A stretch of 64,000 bases of DNA from Candidatus Auribacterota bacterium (GCA_023144635.1 JAGLFH010000037.1:26489-90488), one strand, 5' to 3'; shown: positions 2,342 through 55,670, counted from the first letter of the stretch. Notes: generated from the letters alone by a model not told the origin. Program-made: numbers and translations.

Positions 2342-2347
2342 TATTTT

Positions 2348-2479
2348 ATAAACAAAGCTTAATTATGGCTATAATCTCTTTAAAGAAATCAATAAAGTAG
2401 AATCAGATAATTACAAAGTCAGAGACTCCCTCGCATCTTTCTTATAATGAAATAGATCATTTTTTTTAAGCTTTGTTTA
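2348..2479. repeat. inverted-repeat-flanked element (15-bp arms ATAAACAAAGCTTAA / TTAAGCTTTGTTTAc)
   Basis: Arms at 2348-2362 and 2466-2479 enclose about 100 bp that includes a unit repeated again at 2839-2880. Confidence 0.4.
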
Positions 2480-2689
2480 CCTAAAGGCAAGCCCTCTGCA
2501 CTACATCTGCTTTGTTATCAAACATTTCCAGTATAAGAATACAGCACAATGTTTGATGCCTCACATCTGCAGCGCATTTGACTTGTAAAATACTATTTCC
2601 TTTAAATATTTCTTTCATAAATAAAGCTGAATAAGAAACATAAACTCTTTAATCTAAGTCAATTGTCGATAGTCCATAGACCATAGCCA

Positions 2690-2760
2690 GAAATCAGAGG
2701 TCAGAGAACAGAAGAAAAGAAAAAACAAGATACAAAATAAAAAAACATCAAACCAAATTT
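2690..2760. repeat. T-depleted purine-rich low-complexity tract
   Basis: cagaaatcagaggtcagagaacagaagaaaagaaaaaacaagatacaaaataaaaaaac; similar tracts at 25366-25660, 37290-37350, 50485-50625. Confidence 0.45.
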
Positions 2761-3156
2761 AAAATCTCAAACAAATACTATTTCCTTTAAATATCTTCTA
2801 CATAAACAAAGCTGAATTAGAAATCTAACCCTTTTGAGCAAATCAATAAAGTAAACCCAGACAATTACAAAGTCAGCCTTGCAGCACATAAAATTAAATT
2901 CCAATAATCAAAAAAACAAATAACAAAACAAAATCCTAAAAGCCGTCATTCGGGTTTCGTGAATGGAACGCAAGGGTAAAGCACCAAGAACACAGATACA
3001 AAATTTATTATTTATTCATAGGCGAAGGCGGGTGCTAACAATTTAAATAAATAAAAAAAAGAGGCAGAACTTGAATATCTGATAGGTGGAAGAAGAAGGG
3101 TCATCAATTCAAAAGTCCTGCCTCACACGGCCGCCATCCTTGGCCGCAAATCTATA

Positions 3157-3333
3157 TTAAACTATTAGTTGTTTGGCATTTTCATTTTTTTCAAATAAGG
3201 TCTGGGCTTTTGCCTCCTCTGATATATAAGTTAAAATAGATCCCATAAAAGCAATTAATGATATAAAAAAGCCTATATAAAGCAGCAGCTTATTAATAGA
3301 TATATTGATTTTTTTTTCAGCTATGTCCAGCAT
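3157..3333 (-). CDS. small hypothetical membrane peptide (58 aa)
   Basis: ATG at 3333-3331 with GGTGG-like SD; translation MLDIAEKKINISINKLLLYIGFFISLIAFMGSILTYISEEAKAQTLFEKNENAKQLIV has one TM helix; lies inside the 1.3-kb intergenic region; below the ORF-track size cutoff. Confidence 0.15.
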   Translation of the reverse strand: MLDIAEKKINISINKLLLYIGFFISLIAFMGSILTYISEEAKAQTLFEKNENAKQLIV

Positions 3334-3645
3334 ATATCCCCACCATTAATTAATTAACACTTTTATATATTAGTATTATACCATACTTTTCATAAAAAAT
3401 CAATTAAACCAGTAATTTTCATTGTTATGCCTTGCAATATAACCACTTATAGCTACTTTAAAATTATCTAGATATATTATATTATTTTACAAATAGTCAT
3501 ATTGTTGATTATTTTGCTTAACAATTAGTTTTTTAAGAGAAGCAGGCCCTAAACCTATTCTATTTTGCTTATTATAACGTGTTTTTTAAGCTATATAATG
3601 TTTGATAGCTTGAATTAAACAGGAAAATACTCTATATTATTTAGA

Positions 3646-4422
3646 ATGGCTTCTTTTTATTTTACTAATAGTATTAAATTCAAAATATGCTGTTTTTTTA
3701 TTGTAGCTTTAGTCTTGTTTACCGCACCTTTTACCTCCACTGCCAACAACACATTTCCTGTTAAGACCATTGTTATTGATCCTGGACACGGCGGAAAGGA
3801 CCAAGGAGCATCAGGCCCCAGCGGAATAGCTGAAAAAGAGGTAACTCTTGATATTTCCCTAAAACTTAAAAAAGAGCTGGAAAAAACTAAAAAATTCAAG
3901 GTTTTTATGACAAGGACTACCGACAAGTTTGTTTCTTTAAAGAAAAGGAAAAAAATTGCAAAGCGATATAAACCAGATGTTTTAATAAGCATACACTGTG
4001 ATGGTAATAAGGACAGAGATATAAATGGTACAGCAGTTTATATTCTTTCAAAAAAAGGCGAAAATTTTACTATTAAACGATCCCTCACACAGGGTGATTA
4101 TGTTTTTAACGGAAACTACATGAATAACTCACTTGCAGACGCAAATCATACCATGGCAAAAACCATGAAGCAAAGCCGTAAATTGGCTGATATAACATTA
4201 AAATATCTTCTGGCACAATTAGGAACAAAAGATATGCATGTAAGAAAAGCCGGCTTCAAAGTATTAAAGATCCTAGATGTTCCTTCAATACTTATTGAAG
4301 TGGCTTTTATTACAAACTGGTGGGAAGAAAAACAGCTTAAGAAAGATAAATTCCGTCAAAAAGCTGCGGTAGGTATAAGAAAAGCACTTCTTGAGTTCTT
4401 TAAAAATAATCCACATAATTGA
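3646..4422 (+). CDS. N-acetylmuramoyl-L-alanine amidase (Amidase_3 family)
   Basis: 258 aa with signal peptide; VIDPGHGGKDQGASG ... VFMTRTTD ... DVLISIHCD are the Amidase_3 zinc-site motifs. Confidence 0.85.
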   Translation: MASFYFTNSIKFKICCFFIVALVLFTAPFTSTANNTFPVKTIVIDPGHGGKDQGASGPSGIAEKEVTLDISLKLKKELEKTKKFKVFMTRTTDKFVSLKKRKKIAKRYKPDVLISIHCDGNKDRDINGTAVYILSKKGENFTIKRSLTQGDYVFNGNYMNNSLADANHTMAKTMKQSRKLADITLKYLLAQLGTKDMHVRKAGFKVLKILDVPSILIEVAFITNWWEEKQLKKDKFRQKAAVGIRKALLEFFKNNPHN

Positions 4423-5513
4423 AATTGGAAAAACCAATACACATTATATACAGCCTTTCCGGTGAAGGAAGAGGGCATGCAACCGTTGCTCTTGCCATTC
4501 ACAAAGAGCTTACCACCCGACTCCCTCTCCTTAAAATCCATTATTTTTGCGGTGGAAAAGCTTTTTATTTTTTAAACGAATCAGGATTGGATGTAACTAA
4601 AATACCTCACTTAAGTTACTCTTATAAAAAAGGTGCAGTAAAGCCTTTTTCTACCTTTTTAAAAAATTTAAGGATCATGCTCAACAAGAAAAACTTCATT
4701 TCAATAAAGGAACAAATCATAAGTTTTTCACCGGTACTTTGTTTATGCGATTTTGAATATTTTGTCCCAAAAATTATAAAGAAGCTGAAAATACCCCTTA
4801 TAAATATAAACCATCAGGGCATTATTACAGAAACAAAATACCCTGTACCTTTAAAAGAAAGATTAAATCACCTTTCCGCTGTTTTAGGAATACATATGAT
4901 CTCATCTCGCGCTCTAATCAACATCATTACTTCCTTTTTTATACCTCCAGTTAAAAAAAATAAAAAAAATAATATCTTTGTCGGACCAATAATAAGAGAA
5001 AACATTGAAAACTCTAGAAAGACAAACTTAAAAAAGGACTTTGTACTTGTTTATGTCATGGATGAATCTTTTAGCTGGATAGAACCTCTTCTTAGTGAAA
5101 TAACAGAAGAAAATTTTATTATTTCAGGGTTCCCAGCAGCAGATGGTAAAAAACATAAAAACATAATACACAAAAAAATAGATCCTGATGTTTTTCTTGA
5201 AGATCTAAAAGATTGTAAATGCGTTATTGCCACATCAGGGCACACTTTGATTGCCGAAGCACTTGCTCTCCAAAAACCTGTTTTAGCACTTTATCAACCC
5301 AATCAGTTCGAGCAATTTTTAAATGCACACTTTCTGGAAAATATGGGTTACGGTAAATCAATAGAAGCTAAAGGAAATATACTGCCTTCCATTAAAAACT
5401 TTTTGAAAAATATTCCAAGATTTGAAAAAAATATTAAAAACTGTTTTTCTACAGGTAATGCAAAAACAATAGATATCATAATAGAAGAAATAAGAAACAG
5501 AAAAGGCTATTAG
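4419..5513 (+). CDS. glycosyltransferase (MurG/GT28-like fold)
   Basis: 364 aa; N-terminal SGEGRGHATVALAIHKEL glycine-rich loop typical of GT-B (MurG-like) enzymes; TTG start forced by an upstream in-frame stop; overlaps amidase stop by 4 nt. Confidence 0.5.
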   Translation: MKLEKPIHIIYSLSGEGRGHATVALAIHKELTTRLPLLKIHYFCGGKAFYFLNESGLDVTKIPHLSYSYKKGAVKPFSTFLKNLRIMLNKKNFISIKEQIISFSPVLCLCDFEYFVPKIIKKLKIPLININHQGIITETKYPVPLKERLNHLSAVLGIHMISSRALINIITSFFIPPVKKNKKNNIFVGPIIRENIENSRKTNLKKDFVLVYVMDESFSWIEPLLSEITEENFIISGFPAADGKKHKNIIHKKIDPDVFLEDLKDCKCVIATSGHTLIAEALALQKPVLALYQPNQFEQFLNAHFLENMGYGKSIEAKGNILPSIKNFLKNIPRFEKNIKNCFSTGNAKTIDIIIEEIRNRKGY

Positions 5514-5622
5514 CCACAGCCTGTCTCGCCATAATCTACCAAAGGTGGACGAAGGCGGGGGGGAGACACATGAAAGCGTAGTGCGTGTGATGCGTTGAGA
5601 GTGGTGCGTTCAAGGTGCTTCC

Positions 5623-5666
5623 TTTCACGTGACCACGTTGACACGTGGAACGTGACTCACGTGGCG
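5623..5666 (+). repeat. CACGTG-rich 41-nt repeat module (copy 1)
   Basis: ctttCACGTGaccACGTtgacACGTGgaACGTGactcACGTggc; 41/41 identical to 37382-37422. Confidence 0.7.
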
Positions 5667-5774
5667 GAAGCAAATATTAATATTTCACTACGGAAAAGCA
5701 CGAAAAAAACTAAATTTAAAAAAACCTTTTCCTAGATTCCTGCTTCCGCAGGAATGACGTACGTTTTATACTTC

Positions 5775-5806
5775 TACACGGGCACAGCACGCTGTGCCCC
5801 TACTAC
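5775..5806 (+). repeat. REP-like hairpin unit (GTAG-palindrome on complementary strand)
   Basis: tacacGGGCACAGCacGCTGTGCCCctactac; 9-bp arms. Confidence 0.65.
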
Positions 5807-5811
5807 TTTTA

Positions 5812-5850
5812 CAGTGGTACGGGCAGGCGCCCCCGCGTACCGCTGCTCAC
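5812..5850 (+). repeat. REP-like hairpin unit, degenerate
   Basis: cagtGGTACGGGCAGGCGCCCCCGCGTACCgctgctcac; imperfect palindrome. Confidence 0.45.
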
Positions 5851-5918
5851 TTTTTATATTTTTCTTTTCTTTTTTATTTTATTTTAATGTCGTCGAAGAC
5901 ACCATTATTTTTATTTTT

Positions 5919-5950
5919 TTTACATGGGCGAAAGATTTTTCGCCCCTTGT
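5919..5950 (+). repeat. REP-like hairpin unit
   Basis: tacatGGGCGAAAgattTTTCGCCCct; core identical to 55368-55395. Confidence 0.7.
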
Positions 5951-6023
5951 ATGTTTTCACAATTCAGGTAACATCAGAGAAAATATGGGACGCAGATCAA
6001 TAGGATTAAGAGCTTTATTATCT

Positions 6024-6060
6024 TTCACACGGACAGGGACAAGCCCTGTCCCTACATACT
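6024..6060 (+). repeat. REP-like hairpin unit
   Basis: cacacGGACAGGGacaagCCCTGTCCctacatac. Confidence 0.7.
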
Positions 6061-6147
6061 TTTACTTTCTATGGTTCATGACTCTGTGTTCTCTGTGAAC
6101 GTGCTAAAAGTCCGCCGGGGCGGGTGGTGTGAAAGGCTTTTGCTTTT

Positions 6148-7659
6148 TTATCCATAATTTTTATCAATAAGACGCATAATATAATGTTTCTCTATTGCTA
6201 CAATCAGAACAACATGAAAAAAGATATAATGCAATGTATTCGTATCTACAAAAGAATGCACAAATGATCCTACGAAAACACCCAGTAAAGCTACTGATAT
6301 TAATTTTTCATCTTTTTTTAGTTTTTCTTTTGAAATAAATAAAAACATCTTATATATAAGAACAATGTAAAATATTAGTGCTGTCAGTCCTGCAAAAACA
6401 CCCATTTCCACTGAAAGGTTTAGAAAAAGATTATGAGCATGAAAATTATGAAATTCTATCTCTTTAGTAGCATACTTGAGCTTGTCAAAGAACAGCATCA
6501 TATCAATAATATAGGCTGGACCAAACTGTTTATAAAACTCCTCTCCCATATTCAAAAACCCTACTCCAAACAACGGAGAACGCTCTATCATTCTTAAAGA
6601 ATAATCCCATATCTGCCCCCTTCCGCTAAGCCCTGATTTTAAACGCAGAAGAAATATGATCTTCTCCAGATAAATCATAATAACGGCTACGACTGATGAT
6701 ACACCTGCAAAGACCATCTTCCACAAATGTTTAGGACGGACATATAGAAGCACTATCCCGCACCCTATCATCATATTAAGAAGCCCTCCTCTGCTAGAAG
6801 CAATAAGCTGTGCAAAAGCTATGCAAGCAAACAAAAAACCATAAAAGATCTTTAATGAGCGCTTCTTATTCACAAAAAACAAAACAAGGGCTATCGGCGC
6901 AATGGATGCAAGTACAGCACCAAAAATATTCTGATGAAAAAAAACAGAACTGGCTTTAAACTGTTTTAAATCACTTGCCTGCCAGCCAATTTTTAAAGCT
7001 ATATTCTGCCAACCTATGGGAACTATATAATCCTGAAGAAAAAGAAATTTTTGTTTTCTGACAACTATCCACTGCAATATACCGAAAAGAGCCAGAAAAG
7101 TAACGACCAGACAAAGGTTCCTAATAAATACTGAAACTTTCCTTTTTTCATTAAAATAATCACTTAAAGCTAGCATAAACAAAGGAAGAAGAAGCATTCC
7201 TAGGCCGCGAATAAAAGTCTTTGAGGGATTTTCTGCATTAATTGTTGATAAGAGGAAAAAAGTAACCAGAAGAAAAAGAAATTTTTTCGTAAACCCAAAA
7301 TATTTAAGACGAATCTTTACTATAGGCTCTGCATTTCTCTTTAATGACCATATGATACAAAATATAATTATGATTATAGGAGTCATGACCGGTATTGCAA
7401 AAGATATTTCATCAACAGGTGAGTTCTGAAAATACATCATTAGAAATATCAGCGCAACCGCAATATCAGGCTTAAAAAAGATAAGAGCTATTAAAAAAAC
7501 ACCACCAATAATAGCAATTGTATACAGATAGTTATAATTTGAAAAAAAGCTTATGCACCATCCTGCAAAAAGGATTATAAAAAAAAAGATTAAAAGTTTT
7601 TCAGTTTGATCTTTCAGTAAAATTTCTTCTACCCCACGTAAACAAGTTAATAAAAACAT
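6148..7659 (-). CDS. O-antigen ligase / Wzy-like polytopic membrane protein
   Basis: 503 aa, about 10-12 predicted TM helices plus a periplasmic loop, typical of the O-antigen ligase family; directly downstream of the Wzz-like gene. Confidence 0.55.
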   Translation of the reverse strand: MFLLTCLRGVEEILLKDQTEKLLIFFFIILFAGWCISFFSNYNYLYTIAIIGGVFLIALIFFKPDIAVALIFLMMYFQNSPVDEISFAIPVMTPIIIIIFCIIWSLKRNAEPIVKIRLKYFGFTKKFLFLLVTFFLLSTINAENPSKTFIRGLGMLLLPLFMLALSDYFNEKRKVSVFIRNLCLVVTFLALFGILQWIVVRKQKFLFLQDYIVPIGWQNIALKIGWQASDLKQFKASSVFFHQNIFGAVLASIAPIALVLFFVNKKRSLKIFYGFLFACIAFAQLIASSRGGLLNMMIGCGIVLLYVRPKHLWKMVFAGVSSVVAVIMIYLEKIIFLLRLKSGLSGRGQIWDYSLRMIERSPLFGVGFLNMGEEFYKQFGPAYIIDMMLFFDKLKYATKEIEFHNFHAHNLFLNLSVEMGVFAGLTALIFYIVLIYKMFLFISKEKLKKDEKLISVALLGVFVGSFVHSFVDTNTLHYIFFHVVLIVAIEKHYIMRLIDKNYG

Positions 7660-13717: not shown

Positions 13718-13733
13718 GGACAGAGGGAAGAAC

Positions 13734-13790
13734 AGTTAATTGGTTTACTTGTTAAATAGTTAACTGGTTCAAGGAGCACTGAAGCGCGAT
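13734..13790 (+). repeat. intergenic repeat module (CAGTTAATTGGTT...GTTAACTGGTTCAAGGAGCACT)
   Basis: About 55-nt module also at 50633-50690 (+) and 46503-46557 (-). Confidence 0.6.
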
Positions 13791-14020: not shown

Positions 14021-14134
14021 TATGTTTTTCTCTTCGTGGTTTTTGTGGTTAATTAAAATAATGCGTCGCAGACACCATAATTTTAAGTACTTTAGCTCAC
14101 TTTAGGCATTTAAAACTTTATATATCTGTCTTAC

Positions 14135-25365: not shown

Positions 25366-25499
25366 TACAGACACAAGACTCAAGCAAAACCTCAGAATCC
25401 AAAGACCTAAAACAAAGAAGAAATAACAAAAGGCACAAGACTCAAAAGCGTTGTTCGTCGTTCGTGATTCGGGGTTCGTGAATTGAGCGCTCCGCGATA

Positions 25500-25660
25500 T
25501 AAAATAAAAAGCAGAGAACAGAAAAAAATCGAGGGATGAAGGACGAGGGACAAAAAAACAGAAGATGCACGATACAAGATACACGATAAATAAAAGCAAA
25601 AGACTTTAGACTCAAGGGGAAAAGCACAAGATAGAAAAGAATAATAAAGAATAAATGTCC
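25500..25660. repeat. T-depleted purine-rich low-complexity tract
   Basis: agcagagaacagaaaaaaatcgagggatgaaggacgagggacaaaaaaacagaagatgcacgatacaagatac...; several GGA motifs. Confidence 0.45.
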
Positions 25661-25723
25661 ATGGACCGTGGTCAATAGACCATAGTCAGAAAAAAACAAA
25701 AGAAAAATTAAAAATAAATAAAT

Positions 25724-25767
25724 CACCCCGCAGGAGTAACCAAGTAACACCTACGGGGTGGTTTTTT
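25724..25767 (+). terminator. terminator-like hairpin repeat (CCACCCCGCAGG...CCTACGGGGTGG plus T6)
   Basis: caccccgcagg-agtaaccaagtaaca-cctacggggtgg-tttttt; second copy 47979-48027. Confidence 0.45.
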
Positions 25768-25776
25768 ATACTACGC

Positions 25777-25810
25777 TTTACAGCGGGCGCAGGCTAGCGG
25801 CGCCCCTACT
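25777..25810 (+). repeat. REP-like hairpin unit
   Basis: cagcGGGCGCaggctagcgGCGCCCctactcac. Confidence 0.6.
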
Positions 25811-25872
25811 CACATTCTACTTTTTATGTTTTACAAGGGCGGTTCGCTTATTTTACACCAAATCCTTGCCCT

Positions 25873-25919
25873 CATGAACCACGTGGGGTTCATGACCGTA
25901 AACCCTACGTGGTTTACGG
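25873..25919 (+). repeat. double-hairpin repeat module (CATGAACC...GGTTCATG / CCGTAAACC...GGTTTACGG)
   Basis: Related copies with the same stems and different loops at 33927-33961 and 46408-46431. Confidence 0.5.
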
Positions 25920-25967
25920 CTATCGCAGATCCGCCAGCGCTTTGAGGAGGACTCACTTTTTATTTTG
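25920..25967 (+). repeat. intergenic repeat module (CTATCGCAGATYCGCCAGCRCTTTGRGGAGGACT)
   Basis: Three copies in window (25920, 28432, 41733 inverted), each preceded by a GC hairpin and containing GGAGGACT followed by a T-run. Confidence 0.6.
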
Positions 25968-26169
25968 TTGTTTTTCACTTGAAACCTCGAATCCTTGAAC
26001 TCTTTTTTTCTACTTTCTACAATTACAATTGACAAATAAAATACTGATTGTTAACATAAAAATTCAACTGATTTATTAGTATTTATTTTTACGTAAAAAA
26101 ATTTATAATTTACTGCTGTCAAATAAGTTATTTCAACTTCTAGTAAATTTATTCTCGGAGGGAAACATA

Positions 26170-28431: not shown

Positions 28432-28480
28432 TCGCCCCTATCGCAGATTCGCCAGCACTTTGTGGAGGACTAACTTTTTT
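28432..28480 (+). repeat. intergenic repeat module (CTATCGCAGATTCGCCAGCACTTTGTGGAGGACT)
   Basis: cgcccctatcgcagattcgccagcactttgtggaggactaactttttt. Confidence 0.6.
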
Positions 28481-33715: not shown

Positions 33716-33990
33716 GACTCAATAAAACGTGGTGCGTGATGCGTTGTGAGTTATGCGTTCAAGGAGCACTGCGTAATAAAAAACGTCATTCGTCGTTCGG
33801 GATTCGTGGTTCGTTCAAGGAGCGCTTCCGCCTTCGTTAAAACTATGGCGAGACAGGAAAGCGAGATAAAAAAACATTAAAAGCGTGATTCGGGGTTCGT
33901 AGTTCGTAAATGGAGAGAACACAGAGTCATGAACCACGTCCTAAACCACATAGGGTTCAGGATAAACAGAAAAAGTAAAAGGTAAAATGT

Positions 33991-34025
33991 GAGTAGGGTT
34001 CTGGCCTGCCTGAACCGTGTAAAAG
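33991..34025 (-). repeat. REP-like hairpin unit (inverted orientation)
   Basis: Plus strand gaGTAGGGTTCtggcctgcctGAACCgtgtaaaag; identical core at 43158-43187. Confidence 0.6.
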
Positions 34026-34231
34026 ATAAAATGTGAAAGTAAGAAAGGGTTACAGCGTTCAAGGTTATTCGATGGAGTTTATTCTGAGCGGAGTCTAAGA
34101 TCCATTCACGAAGAACACGAAAGACAAATTACGAATACCCCTATTTTCTCCCCCTCTGTCCTCTGCTTTCCGGGCTTTTTCTTCAGTCTTGAGTCTGGTG
34201 TCTTGAGTCTTGAGTCTTACATAAAAATCCC

Positions 34232-34260
34232 TTGTTTATTATATATAAAATGTATATAAT
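34232..34260 (+). promoter_or_regulatory. candidate sigma70-type promoter upstream of purQ
   Basis: TTGTTT (34232-34237), 17-nt spacer, TATAAT (34255-34260), about 38 nt before the purQ ATG. Confidence 0.35.
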
Positions 34261-34297
34261 GCCATTCCCTGAAACCTGAAAAATAAAGGAATCTAAT

Positions 34298-37240: not shown

Positions 37241-37381
37241 AAAAGTGTTGAGTGTTAAGTTTTGAGTGATGAGTTGAAGGAGCACTTCGTGCGAAGATAG
37301 ATACAAGATACAGGATAAAAACAAGAACAGAAGACAGAGGACAGAAAGAATAGAATTACATTTAACAAATTATTGAGGTTG

Positions 37382-37424
37382 CTTTCACGTGACCACGTTG
37401 ACACGTGGAACGTGACTCACGTAG
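37382..37424 (+). repeat. CACGTG-rich 41-nt repeat module (copy 2)
   Basis: Identical to 5623-5663; lies between purL and purF. Confidence 0.7.
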
Positions 37425-37547
37425 CACCCTACTGCTTAGCTTTGCAAGCAAAACTAAGCAAAAATCAGAGTTCGCAATAACGAAATTTTACTTTTATATT
37501 TAACTAACAACTAACTTGAAAAACAATTTCTACTAAAAGCTAAAATT

Positions 37548-41691: not shown

Positions 41692-41732
41692 AAGAAGCAG
41701 AAGCTATTTAGACACGAAGAAAAAAAGATATA

Positions 41733-41795
41733 AAAGGTAGTCCTCCACAAAGCGCTGGCGGATCTGCGATAGGGGCGATTCATGAATCGCCCAAT
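41733..41795 (-). repeat. intergenic repeat module (same family, inverted) with perfect 20-nt palindrome gggcgattcatgaatcgccc
   Basis: Plus strand aaaaggtagtcctccacaaagcgctggcggatctgcgataggggcgattcatgaatcgccc; lies between purH and purD. Confidence 0.6.
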
Positions 41796-45371: not shown

Positions 45372-46214
45372 TTATTCTAAAAAAACTTTTACCTGTGATC
45401 CTCTACCGTGAGCAAATGAAAAAACAACATCACTTGCACCTTGAGGAATTGGTACATTAAAAATATTTTTTCCCTGAGATAAACGTCCATTCTGAGCATA
45501 GGGATGCCATGCGCCATTATAATAAACTTTAATCGTATTTATTATTATTGCATGCTTTTCAGTAATATTGACATCTACAATTATCTTTGAAAAACTTCTG
45601 CCACCCGTATAAGCACTTACATTATACTTTCCAACTTTTTTATCATAATTAGCCTTAGTAAAAGAAGCGATCAAAACCTGCGAACTATGTTTTTTTACAA
45701 TAGGATTGTGACTTGATTTCTGACGTGTACAACCGGGACAACTGCTATTATTTGAACCATACCATCTTTTGCAATGAGTACAACGTATACTGGGGTTTGA
45801 AGAATGAGAAAGACTTACATCAAAACCTTGTCTGCAATGCGGGCAATTAACAAAAAATTGATCAGTGTTCAGTTTTCTTCCGCAATTAACACAAAAAGAA
45901 CTATTAGACTTATTACGCGCTCCACAATTCTGGCAAAGAGCAATCGTATTACTTGTGTTTAAACCAAAATTTCTGTGACAATGCGGACAATATACATTTT
46001 GAGAATATGATGAATTTGTTGATGATGTTAGTTTTGCACCACACCCCGCACAATAATTAGCATTAGATTTATTCTGGTAACGGCAGCTCGGGCATTCATA
46101 ACCCGATCGGTTACTTTGTGATCCTTGATTAAATATATCCAGCCATGAATTGTCTGCAACAACAACAGGCACTATTAAAAAACAAATTAATAAAGTAAAA
46201 ATTATTTTTTTCAT
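45372..46214 (-). CDS. secreted protein with four to five tandem zinc-ribbon (CxxC...CxxC) modules and C-terminal beta-rich domain
   Basis: ORF track starts at 46295 inside a repeat region; ATG at 46214 follows GGAAGGA SD and gives signal peptide MKKIIFTLLICFLIVPVVVA; repeated CPSCRY...CAGCG, CPHCHR...CQNCG, CVNCG, CPHCRQ...CTHCKR...CPGC. Confidence 0.55.
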   Translation of the reverse strand: MKKIIFTLLICFLIVPVVVADNSWLDIFNQGSQSNRSGYECPSCRYQNKSNANYCAGCGAKLTSSTNSSYSQNVYCPHCHRNFGLNTSNTIALCQNCGARNKSNSSFCVNCGRKLNTDQFFVNCPHCRQGFDVSLSHSSNPSIRCTHCKRWYGSNNSSCPGCTRQKSSHNPIVKKHSSQVLIASFTKANYDKKVGKYNVSAYTGGRSFSKIIVDVNITEKHAIIINTIKVYYNGAWHPYAQNGRLSQGKNIFNVPIPQGASDVVFSFAHGRGSQVKVFLE

Positions 46215-46275
46215 ATCAAATCCTTCCTTCGGGGTTTGCCGCGTCGCATCTCCTCGCAATGACAACATTTTACGT

Positions 46276-46312
46276 TTTATAGCGGGAGGAGGCAAGCACC
46301 TCCCCTACATAC
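46276..46312 (+). repeat. REP-like hairpin unit
   Basis: tagcGGGAGGaggcaagcaCCTCCCctacatac. Confidence 0.55.
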
Positions 46313-46360: not shown

Positions 46361-46395
46361 TTTTACACGGTACGGGCAAGCCCGCACCCTACTCA
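46361..46395 (+). repeat. REP-like hairpin unit
   Basis: ttttacacGGTACGGGCaaGCCCGCACCctactcac. Confidence 0.6.
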
Positions 46396-46502
46396 CATTT
46401 TACTTTCATCATGAACCCTATGTGGTTCATGCCCCTTTTGTGTCCTTCCCTTTGATTTACTTTATTCACTCAGGACAGGATGGCGGTGAATTTTATAATA
46501 AT

Positions 46503-46557
46503 CGCACGAAGTGCTCCTTGAACCAATTAACTTTTTAACCAGCTAACTAATTAACTG
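46503..46557 (-). repeat. intergenic repeat module (CAGTTAATTGGTT... family, inverted)
   Basis: Reverse complement reads cagttaattagttagctggttaaaaagttaattggttcaaggagcacttcgtgcg. Confidence 0.6.
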
Positions 46558-46683
46558 TTTCCATCTATGTCCGTGCTGAATTTTCATTCTTTTTAAACTT
46601 CTTATACATAGATATAGACGATCAAAACACATAAATATTTCATAAAACAACAGAAATTCGCTGGCAAGGTCAAAGATTAAGAA

Positions 46684-47891: not shown

Positions 47892-47978
47892 AATATGTCT
47901 TCCTTTATAACTGATTTATATTATTGATGCAATAAATAAAAAGATCAAAAAAAGTGACTAAAATACGTTAAAGTTTCT

Positions 47979-48027
47979 CCACCCCGCAGGAGTAAACAAA
48001 TTACACCTACGGGGTGGTGGTCTTTTT
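47979..48027 (+). repeat. terminator-like hairpin repeat (second copy, plus orientation inside a minus-strand operon gap)
   Basis: ccaccccgcaggagtaaacaaattacacctacggggtggtggtcttttt; between nrdR and glyA. Confidence 0.45.
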
Positions 48028-48082
48028 CAAATTACACAAGTAAAAAACAAATTCTAAATATCAAATTAGATTCAAGACATAT

Positions 48083-48120
48083 CATACACGGGCGTATTGC
48101 AATACGCCCCTACTAACTTT
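48083..48120 (+). repeat. REP-like hairpin unit
   Basis: cacGGGCGTATTGCAATACGCCCctactaac; identical to 13990-14009. Confidence 0.75.
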
Positions 48121-48155
48121 TTACTTTTCCATTTGTGGCTAATTGCCTTTTGTTC

Positions 48156-48195
48156 TTTCACACGGACAGGCACAGAGACCTGTCCCTACATATAT
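48156..48195 (+). repeat. REP-like hairpin unit
   Basis: cacacGGACAGGcacagagaCCTGTCCctacata; identical core at 55483-55504. Confidence 0.7.
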
Positions 48196-48261
48196 TTTAT
48201 TTTTTATTTTAATGTCGTCGAAGGCTCCTTTCACGAACACCAAACGACGAACCACGAGTTT

Positions 48262-50412: not shown

Positions 50413-50484
50413 AATTCCCCTTATAATGTTGTTACATATTAAAGAAATAGTATATTACTATGAATATATTATATTTGCAAATAG

Positions 50485-50625
50485 TGATATAAAAATCAGA
50501 TGACAGAAGACAGAGGGCAGATAACAGAAAACCACATGATTCGTCTTTGGCGAAAACGTGGCTTCGCAGAGGATAGAAGATAGAAAAAGCAAGAGAAAAA
50601 CACAAGATTAAGGCAAAACAGAAGA
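50485..50625. repeat. T-depleted purine-rich low-complexity tract
   Basis: gatgacagaagacagagggcagataacagaaaacc...ggatagaagatagaaaaagcaagagaaaaacacaagattaaggcaaaacagaagaaaaag. Confidence 0.45.
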
Positions 50626-50632
50626 AAAAGAT

Positions 50633-50690
50633 CAGTTAATTGGTTAACTCATTAAAAAGTTAACTGGTTAAAGGAACGCTCCGCTGATTA
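50633..50690 (+). repeat. intergenic repeat module (CAGTTAATTGGTT... family)
   Basis: cagttaattggttaactcattaaaaagttaactggttaaaggaacgct. Confidence 0.6.
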
Positions 50691-50953
50691 TTATAATAAT
50701 GACCAAGGAAAAACACGAGAGGAAAAGTAATTCGTGGTTAATTAATATTATATCGCCGAAAGCTCATTAATTTCACATTTTCTGGTTTTTTTACCTGGCT
50801 TCCGCGGTCTCTCCCAACAAGATGGCGGACAAGTAAACTACGTGATGACAACATTATACGTTTTACTTTTATCTTTTAACCATTTACTATGGACTATTGT
50901 CTATCGACTATTTTTGTTTTTTCTATTATCTGCTATCTGCCTTCTGATTTCTG

Positions 50954-55365: not shown

Positions 55366-55400
55366 ATTACATGGGCGAAAGATTTTTCGCCCCTACTACT
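55366..55400 (+). repeat. REP-like hairpin unit
   Basis: tacatGGGCGAAAgattTTTCGCCCctactac; identical to 5926-5945. Confidence 0.7.
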
Positions 55401-55476
55401 TTTTACCTAGATTCCTGCCTAGCGGCAAGGTCGCTGGCATTCGCAGGAATGACATACGTAATAGTATTTTGTGCTT

Positions 55477-55515
55477 TTACACGGACAGGCACAGAGACCT
55501 GTCCCTACATGCGTT
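55477..55515 (+). repeat. REP-like hairpin unit
   Basis: ttttacacGGACAGGcacagagaCCTGTCCctacatgcg. Confidence 0.7.
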
Positions 55516-55517
55516 TA

Positions 55518-55555
55518 CATTTTACAAGGGCGGATTTAGAATCCGCCCCTACACA
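55518..55555 (+). repeat. REP-like hairpin unit
   Basis: ttttacaaGGGCGGATTtagAATCCGCCCctacacac; directly abuts the previous unit. Confidence 0.75.
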
Positions 55556-55670
55556 CTTTTTACTTCTTACTTTTTTCCTCTGATTCTTTTTTATCCTGTA
55601 AATCCTGTCTAAATTTATAATCATCAGCGAAGGCGGAAGACTCCTTGACCTATCACCTATAACCCATTAC

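Follow-up and report, generated by a model that had tools for sequence, protein, structure and literature searches.

A spacer between two convergent cell-envelope genes

Candidatus Auribacterota is an uncultivated phylum that, according to excerpts of PMC9324843, is the same as Aureabacteria and SURF-CP-2. The stretch of its DNA analysed here (the window, 64 kb, to which all counts refer unless stated otherwise) corresponds to approximately 26.6-90.6 kb of contig DAOVST010000013.1 in assembly GCA_030633405.1, as located via the last gene of the window; the Wzy_C protein encoded next to the spacer is identical to one from a metagenome-assembled Candidatus Aureabacteria genome. It has a G+C content of about 33% and carries housekeeping genes (Amidase_3, a GT1-type glycosyltransferase, Wzy_C, Wzz, purQ/L/F/E, glyA, nrdR and dtd). 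At 5514-6147 lies a spacer of 634 bp that separates the 3' ends of two convergent cell-envelope genes, namely a glycosyltransferase gene and a Wzy_C/O-antigen-ligase gene. A reading made from the DNA alone (the sequence-only reading) had described this spacer as a non-coding pile-up of units resembling repetitive extragenic palindromic (REP) elements and of other repeat modules, and that description stands: the recurrences were confirmed and no gene was detected. The spacer holds three units of a REP family that is tagged with the sequence GTAG and a fourth unit that has diverged from it, together with a hairpin tagged CGTC and further modules that recur within the window.

The GTAG-tagged hairpin family

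By anchoring on CCCTAC in combination with hairpin energy, 16 members of the family were collected from the window, and the spacer contributes three of these; CCCTAC (GTAGGG on the other strand) is found in 15 of the 16. The consensus consists of a T-rich stretch followed by TTTTAC-AC-GG-(stem, loop)-CC-CTAC-WYAC-(W)TTTTAC, with an 8-bp G+C stem in which about six further, variable pairs lie beyond the closing GG/CC, and with a loop of 4-5 nt. Read on the opposite strand, a unit consists of GTAG directly joined to a perfect G+C-rich hairpin that is followed by GTGT. There is next to no variation in the flanks and in the two closing G-C pairs, while the inner stem varies among copies. The word TTTTAC bounds each unit on both sides and is shared by neighbours in arrays, where a single TTTTAC serves one unit as its 3' boundary and the following unit as its 5' boundary. 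Within the spacer the tag is GTAG at 5776 and 6027, CAAG at 5920 and CAGC in the diverged variant at 5810.

At least nine stem classes can be told apart, several of which are present twice at distant loci, the members of the same-class pairs 5920/55367, 13988/48088, 28485/55520 and 33976/43140 being tens of kb apart. When the 16 copies are aligned over a 7-pair helix, 94.6% of the cells are paired, versus 67.9% in shuffles and at most 58% when the partners are slid. Double-sided changes affect five of the seven pairs and amount to 29 cells (7.0 expected in shuffles), one-sided (G-T) changes occur in none of the 112 stem cells, and RNAalifold agrees with the helix. Such Watson-Crick compensation without wobble argues for a palindrome at the level of the DNA rather than for a structure of the RNA only. 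With a covariance model of the family, all copies but one (15 of 16) are retrieved at E <= 4e-7 and no other sequence scores below E = 0.3; the missing copy (55479) overlaps a neighbouring match and is not listed by the model. The pattern of the REP flanks gives three matches in the window versus 0.00 in 100 shuffles.

All 16 copies are intergenic and none lies within a confirmed gene. They are distributed as published for REPs: the five divergent spacers have no copy at all, the three convergent ones hold six and the six unidirectional ones 10-11. Orientation is uniform in every cluster (5776/5810/5920/6027, 43157/43203, 46279/46365, 48086/48160 and 55369/55479/55525), i.e. all clusters of the window are head-to-tail, and the inverted or alternating pairing by which REP doublets forming hairpins (REPINs) and bacterial interspersed mosaic elements (BIMEs) are recognized was found in none of them.

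Three other readings of the array were considered and rejected. A CRISPR array does not agree with the spacing of the four REP-like units of the spacer, which is irregular (37, 110 and 105 nt between successive starts). An integron attC array was discarded for want of an integrase and of cassettes and because the end motifs are wrong, and a replication-strand bias because the orientation of the REPs flips twice in 64 kb, along with gene direction. As a separate observation, the REP at 46279-46308 overlaps the mechanically assigned TTG start of a zinc-ribbon open reading frame (ORF; 45372-46295), the true start of which probably lies further downstream.

The comparison with published REPs rests on excerpts of a 2013 survey (PMC3733652) wherever that source is cited. 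In these, GTAG REPs are described as having the GTAG tag in more than 90% of their members, a stem of 6-13 bp and sub-families that differ by complementary changes, and as residing between convergent and unidirectional genes; REP-Sm of Stenotrophomonas has a 16-nt palindrome with GTAG directly before it (PMC8266576). The present family is like the 'group 3' elements of Stenotrophomonas maltophilia (REP-Sm/SMAG; PMC3733652, PMC8266576) in having an unpaired GTAG directly 5' of a perfect stem that is G+C-rich and some 8 bp long, and like GTAG REPs at large (PMC3733652) in its short loop, its many extragenic copies, its complementary stem sub-families and its absence from divergent spacers. It differs in its A+T-rich host (33% G+C) from the phylum Auribacterota, in its long conserved single-stranded flanks (TTTTAC...GTGT / ...WYAC-TTTTAC), in the absence of G-T pairs and in a strictly head-to-tail order instead of head-to-head or tail-to-tail dimers; according to the excerpts (PMC3733652), head-to-tail order is rare or absent in most REP families. 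Moreover, no cognate REP-associated tyrosine transposase (RAYT) was seen in the approximately 78 kb of the host genome that were examined.

The CGTC-tagged hairpin

The second tagged hairpin has four copies in the window (5736, 13848, 43282 and 55411), of which the one in the spacer carries the tag CGTC (5756-5759, minus strand) and the other three TGTC. The CGTC super-family of REPs is characterized by the tag CGTC, often TGTC, by an 8-9 bp stem that starts with A-T and T-A, by a loop of 4-5 nt and by a short tail near CCA (PMC3733652). The stems ATTCCTGC/GCAGGAAT and ATCCCGCG/CGCGGGAT are 8 bp long, start with AT and differ from each other in a compensatory way. The spacer copy has the 4-nt loop GGAA and the tail CTA, and folds at -7.6 kcal/mol (z -3.9); in the other three copies the loops measure 7, 8 and 28 nt and the tail is CCA once and CTA twice. 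Judged by its sequence, the spacer copy therefore fits all of the published features except the exact tail, and since it does so, members of both known REP super-families would be present in the spacer.

The likeness to CGTC-1 to -4 (dRS3 of Neisseria, RPE-4/RPE-6 of Rickettsia; PMC3733652) concerns the tag, the 8-bp stem and its A-T/T-A start, and extends, for CGTC REPs in general (PMC3733652), to the 4-nt loop of the spacer copy, the unpaired tail of 3 nt and the coexistence with GTAG REPs. There are differences as well. Three of the four copies have a longer loop, a further conserved flank, AAAACGTA, lies in front of the tag, and the copies are single units, four in 64 kb without any head-to-head dimer, whereas the published organisation is one of dimers in many copies.

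Inventory of the spacer

The modules of the spacer are listed in Table 1, together with the neighbouring genes.

Table 1. Features of the convergent spacer and its surroundings (window coordinates; cm, covariance model; folds in kcal/mol)
Feature	Position	Strand	Remarks
Glycosyltransferase gene	4419-5513	+	left neighbour of the spacer
5-bp hairpin AGGCT/AGCCT over the glycosyltransferase stop codon, then word CCTGTCTCGCCATA	5501-5533		both recur in the window; hairpin scored terminator-like on the minus strand (terminator scan)
Heptamer-like degenerate tract GTGATGC GTTGAGA GTGGTGC GTTCAAG, end word TTCAAGG(A/T)GC	5587-5615	+	26/29 identical to 33736-33764; similar tracts in other spacers
CACGTG module, 5 tandem octamers CACGTGNN within outer stem GCTTCC/GGAAGC	5616-5672		hairpin of ~55 nt; DNA fold -18.3, z -4.7
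CGTC-tagged REP-type hairpin, AAAACGTA-CGTC-ATTCCTGC-GGAA-GCAGGAAT-CTAGG	5731-5768	-	read on the minus strand
Spurious 114-codon ORF	5754-6098	+	runs through the 4 REP units
GTAG-tagged REP unit 1, ACAC-GGGCACAGC-ACG-CTGTGCCC-CTAC	5776-5803	+	GTAG head on the minus strand; cm 47.6 bits, E = 5e-8; fold -8.6, z -3.2
Diverged REP variant ACAGTGG...CCGCTG	5810-5847	+	imperfect hairpin of ~12 bp; absent from cm list; fold -11, z -2.0
Non-hairpin module TTTTATTTTAATGTCGTCGAAGACACCAT (TTTTAATGTCGTCGAAG module)	5877-5911	+	no significant fold
GTAG-tagged REP unit 3, TTACAT-GGGCGAAAGATTTTTCGCCC-CTTG	5920-5949	+	tag mutated to CAAG; cm 46.1 bits; fold -9.1, z -5.3
Stretch without repeat partner in the window	5950-6020		the only such stretch of the spacer; no ORF, no RNA match
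GTAG-tagged REP unit 4 with conserved flanks, TCTTTCACAC-GGACAGGG-ACAAG-CCCTGTCC-CTACATACTTTTAC	6021-6069	+	hairpin 6027-6055; cm 54.5 bits, E = 1e-9; fold -8.7, z -4.7
Half copy of CATGAACC-CTATGT-GGTTCATG hairpin family, plus word GACTCTGTGTTCTCT	6070-6094	+	consensus loop of the family CTAYGY
Wzy_C/O-antigen-ligase gene	6148-7659	-	right neighbour of the spacer

The four REP-like units that the sequence-only reading had placed here are all present (folds from -8.6 to -11 kcal/mol, z from -2.0 to -5.3), and its use of the label REP is justified in that three of them combine the GTAG tag, or a variant of it that differs in one or two bases, with a hairpin, the fourth is diverged, and the ATTCCTGC hairpin is CGTC-tagged. 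The other repeats that it had pointed out recur as well, and every item on its list lies at the position given there or 1-4 nt away from it. The CACGTG module is identical over 5622-5662 to 37382-37422 (41/41, E = 1e-15), its single other copy in the window, which has a different outer stem. The ATTCCTGC hairpin has its segments 5731-5743 and 5747-5764 matched at 55406-55418 and 55442-55459, and the TTTTAATGTCGTCGAAG module is found again at 48202-48223 (22/22 with 5877-5898) and at 14064-14084 (19/21 with 5891-5911). The piece proposed at 6071-6093 as the reverse complement of a distant segment is indeed an exact one (23/23); only the coordinates had been 1-4 nt off, the matching segments being 6072-6094 and 33914-33936.

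Several modules have additional partners. The segment 5501-5518 matches the reverse complement of 48134-48151 at 17 of 18 positions and 5520-5533 that of 33844-33857 at every position (14/14). Unit 3 is identical over 5920-5947 to 55367-55394 (28/28), a twin that has retained CTAC. The diverged variant abuts unit 1 head-to-tail past TTTTAC; its altered tag (CAGC) lets the flanks CAGTGG/CCGCTG pair, which lengthens the stem, and its 5' flank ACAG(C/T)GG is shared with the copies at 25780 and 46279. The stretch 5950-6020 has partners of at least 14 nt in the window at its edges only. The segment 6021-6058 resembles 48154-48192 and 55474-55510, and the order of a REP followed by a tail that is seen at 6021-6094 recurs at 33914-34022 (minus strand) and 46365-46431 (plus strand), so that some modules travel jointly, as composites. 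In total, exact 18-mers with another occurrence in the window make up 20% of the spacer; the figure is 5.3% for intergenic DNA as a whole and 0.14% for coding DNA.

In its mosaic of several kinds of small repeats, which are combined differently at other loci, the spacer is like the BIMEs of Escherichia coli and the mosaic regions of Neisseria (REP/dRS3). In BIMEs, nevertheless, the units alternate, are regularly spaced and are joined by defined linkers (e.g. sites for IHF), whereas here they are uniform in orientation, irregularly spaced and joined by unrelated linkers.

Other repeats were observed elsewhere. Degenerate heptamer runs (AGACTCA, CAAGATA, TTCGTGA) occupy the spacers 25366-26169, 33716-34297, 37241-37547 and 50413-50953, where the lag-7 autocorrelation excess is 0.09-0.14, coding DNA having only a lag-3 signal; a run of GATACAC is found at 4980-5030 in a contig of a related metagenome-assembled genome (MAG). 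These runs are reminiscent of the heptameric short tandemly repeated repetitive (STRR) sequences of cyanobacteria, albeit in a different phylum. As an account of the convergent spacer itself a 7-nt periodicity was rejected, since it is strong in the four other spacers and weak here (excess 0.01). The module TATCGCAGATCCGCCAGCGCTTTGWGGAGGACT has three copies that are 91-97% identical (25920-25953, 28432-28479 and, on the minus strand, 41732-41778), each adjoining a GGCG(G)ATT...AATCGCC hairpin, and the module ATCAGTTAATTGGTT...TTAACTGGTTCAAGGAGCAC has three that are about 88% identical (13728-13780, 50628-50675 and, on the minus strand, 46510-46559). Many further spacers contain the word TTCAAGGAGCAC/GTGCTCCTTGAA, one of its occurrences being 5609-5619. 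Finally, 2342-3645 is a gene-poor stretch of 1.3 kb with a G+C content of 29%, in which ENA gene calling gives only a 58-codon ORF and in which 2386-2422 and 2588-2638 are directly repeated at 2840-2876 and 2773-2823, respectively.

Authenticity of the sequence

Repeats of this kind are an obstacle to assembly, and it could be supposed that the spacer is an artefact made of collapsed or chimeric repeats. Short-read Logan contigs indeed terminate within it, at 5737 and 5740, i.e. in the CGTC hairpin, and in one scaffold 100 N replace another REP cluster. The spacer is, however, identical over all 634 bp in ENA assemblies from three samples, which were assembled independently, and in the NCBI MAG GCA_030633405.1. 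Because of this identity between independent assemblies the sequence is genuine, and an artefact is hardly credible.

The 100-N gap corresponds to 55487-55566 of the window, inside the REP cluster at 55.5 kb. It is also the sole 'difference' that a search for population polymorphism in the REP clusters between samples brought to light. The assemblies break exactly at repeat clusters, and the contigs of relatives that carry glyA are just 2-4 kb long.

Coding and RNA content of the spacer

The 114-codon ORF that runs through the four REP units has an open frame with an ATG start and was reported by the gene caller on two truncated Logan contigs. A true protein gene is nonetheless extremely improbable: the ORF has no match in Pfam, it is called only on Logan contigs that end in the spacer and is left uncalled in the complete ENA contigs, it consists of four palindromic repeats and T-runs that yield a Phe-rich product of low complexity, and the same repeats at other loci are in frame with nothing. 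The sequence-only reading, which had called this frame repeat-derived and had named a protein or RNA gene in the spacer as the observation that would speak against it, is thus upheld on both points: the frame crosses four hairpin repeats, and neither Pfam, Rfam, ARAGORN nor the ENA gene calls reveal a gene in the spacer.

A hidden gene for a small regulatory RNA, for instance in 5950-6020 or in the CACGTG hairpin, deserves separate consideration, as both strands of the spacer give more stable folds than shuffled sequence (z -5.5 and -4.4) and weak Rfam matches exist (FtrB, SprD and STnc230). These matches score 25.8, 19.6 and 22.9 bits, far under the respective gathering thresholds of 66, 100 and 50, and belong to unrelated lineages; a search of the whole window at the gathering threshold and of the spacer at E <= 1 gave nothing credible, and ARAGORN found no tRNA in the spacer. 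The excess of folding is due to the repeat hairpins. Promoter-like sites are no more common than in shuffles (3 versus 3.4) and the corresponding spacer of a relative cannot be aligned with it (see below). On balance, a small RNA gene appears very unlikely.

Transcription termination

The sequence-only reading had raised the question whether convergent transcripts might terminate in the hairpin array. Between 5300 and 6400 there are three terminator-like sites, versus 0.5 expected in shuffles, and two of these are REP units with T-rich tails, which appear in a loose scan on the plus strand only. Moreover, the REPs are situated downstream of genes, with none in a divergent (promoter) spacer, and RNA-level roles have been ascribed to REPs in the literature (PMC3733652, excerpts). 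The hairpin array could be mainly a device that acts on RNA, i.e. a bidirectional terminator, an insulator or a group of elements that stabilise mRNA 3' ends, selected to keep the convergent transcription of the two genes from colliding. We consider this rather unlikely, since the T-runs begin 4-6 nt past the stem and not at its foot, nothing terminator-like is found on the minus strand beside the stop codon of Wzy_C, no G-U pair occurs in the 112 stem cells, and a relative manages without REPs at the glyA-nrdR site. On the plus strand, the units may act as terminators or as stabilisers of mRNA; as a general reason for the family such a role is not supported, because ten of the 11 units that lie in unidirectional spacers have the opposite orientation, their T-rich tail lying on the non-transcribed strand.

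With intrinsic (Rho-independent) terminators the units have in common that they are G+C-rich hairpins downstream of genes with, on the plus strand, a T-rich sequence 3' of the stem. They differ from these by the CTACWYAC between stem and T-run, by an orientation that, in unidirectional spacers, is mostly antisense to the flanking genes, and by conserved flanks that are not those of a terminator. The window also contains a terminator-like hairpin, CACCCCGCAGGAGTAA..CCTACGGGGTGG with a T-run after it, that is a repeated module in its own right (25724-25762 and 47980-48018, 36/39 identical); the copy at 47980-48018 is oriented opposite to the genes on either side of it.

Comparison with relatives and other genomes

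The sequence-only reading had also suggested a comparison of the spacer between genomes. In a second Aureabacteria MAG (GCA_016929035.1, Wzy_C 57% identical) at least 344 nt follow Wzy_C before the contig ends, and this DNA cannot be aligned with the spacer and is filled with other repeat modules, matching 46409-46431, 46250-46279 and 25563-25588 of the window. More informative is glyA-nrdR, the spacer of which (47892-48261) is 370 nt long in the window and contains two GTAG REPs, the terminator-like module and the TTTTAATGTCGTCGAAG word, versus 90 nt without any repeat in a relative with 84% identity in GlyA. The covariance model detected no copy of the GTAG family in 11.5 kb of a related species. 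The comparison with relatives implies that the repeats are lineage-specific additions and not conserved regulatory sequence.

A scan of a collection of genome contigs with the flank pattern, which carries no information on copy number because the collection excludes the host genome, gave 65 mostly single matches in unrelated phyla. Eleven of the 65 are true hairpins (<= -9.5 kcal/mol), versus 0.5-4% expected, so that similar GTAG-GG...CC-GTGT hairpins do occur sporadically elsewhere. A stricter pattern applied to metagenome contigs gave nine matches, none of which is from the Auribacterota lineage. Inverted pairs of GTAG-GG hairpins with ACACGG...CCCTAC flanks were encountered in unrelated contigs of a gut metagenome and of Clostridia-type MAGs, and this type of flank is therefore not unique to Aureabacteria.

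Origin of the repeats and the mobilising enzyme

We consider it probable that the spacer is non-coding DNA which arose by the accumulation of miniature palindromes of the REP type at convergent 3' ends, where insertions are harmless. The GTAG, CGTC and CACGTG hairpins and the non-hairpin words each recur in other spacers of the genome, and the units are multi-copy, constrained in structure, kept off promoter-side spacers and gained or lost between relatives. In known GTAG REPs the RAYT, a Y1 enzyme of the HUH type, binds the folded single strand, uses GTAG in the manner of a guide and cuts close by (PMC2817692, PMC8266576). By analogy, the GTAG units of the window would be non-autonomous elements (PMC2817692, PMC8266576): a HUH tyrosine transposase (RAYT/TnpA-REP) encoded elsewhere would recognize the folded single-stranded hairpin, with the 5' GTAG as guide, and would cleave nearby, so that units are copied into new intergenic sites. 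Any present-day role, for instance in shielding mRNA 3' ends or in weakly terminating the transcript of the glycosyltransferase gene, would be secondary and optional.

Several observations weigh against this account. Neither a RAYT nor another Y1 transposase (Y1_Tnp, PF01797) was found in the approximately 78 kb of genome examined, and the enzyme is one that we infer entirely; a Pfam search of 30 ORFs of the window gave no transposase of any kind, and the flanks of the window (10 kb downstream and 4.4 kb upstream, precomputed Pfam lists) contain no REP and no transposase. Every unit, in the spacer and in all clusters of the window, is head-to-tail. At least nine stem classes with one pair of flanks in 64 kb are more than is usual for one RAYT-REP pair, the copy number of the family having been counted in the window only.

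The head-to-tail arrays would be explained by local duplication or slippage, and the TTTTAC that lies on both sides of each unit and is common to neighbours in arrays brings to mind enzymes other than a RAYT. IS608, for instance, inserts 3' of TTAC. The units might thus have spread through an IS200/IS605-type TnpA that cleaves at the bounding TTAC (the guide and cleavage logic of this type of enzyme is summarized in PMC8266576), or by local events. Such a spread without RAYT is in our view unlikely: the sequence examined contains no transposase of this or any other kind, identical classes tens of kb apart make local slippage alone insufficient, and GTAG directly 5' of the stem is the signature of a RAYT.

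A more speculative possibility, and one that we regard as quite improbable, is that the GTAG family is a distinct REP variant, the enzyme of which would read the flanks (TTTTAC...GTAG/GTGT) plus any G+C-rich perfect hairpin and would target its own TTAC. Insertion would then take place beside a TTAC, a word restored by every unit at its 3' terminus, and from this both a head-to-tail pile-up and the presence of many stem classes under one enzyme would follow.

Implications

No repeats are mentioned in the one genome paper on Auribacterota/Aureabacteria that was consulted. The accumulation of REP-type palindromes, which we hold to be the probable origin of the spacer, has practical consequences in that the repeat content accounts for the assembly breaks and N-gaps at intergenic spacers of these MAGs, and in that ORFs like the one at 5754-6098 can be flagged as repeat-derived false genes. 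At the level of the REP families, the occurrence of GTAG- and CGTC-tagged REPs is extended to Auribacterota/Aureabacteria, which are not among the phyla named in the excerpts of the 2013 survey (PMC3733652). If a cognate transposase is found, the combination of head-to-tail arrays with many stem classes would make the family a compact test of how a REP enzyme chooses its substrate, and if the self-targeting variant were to prove true, it would represent an IS200/IS605-like mode of REP amplification that has not been described for the classical REPIN/BIME systems.

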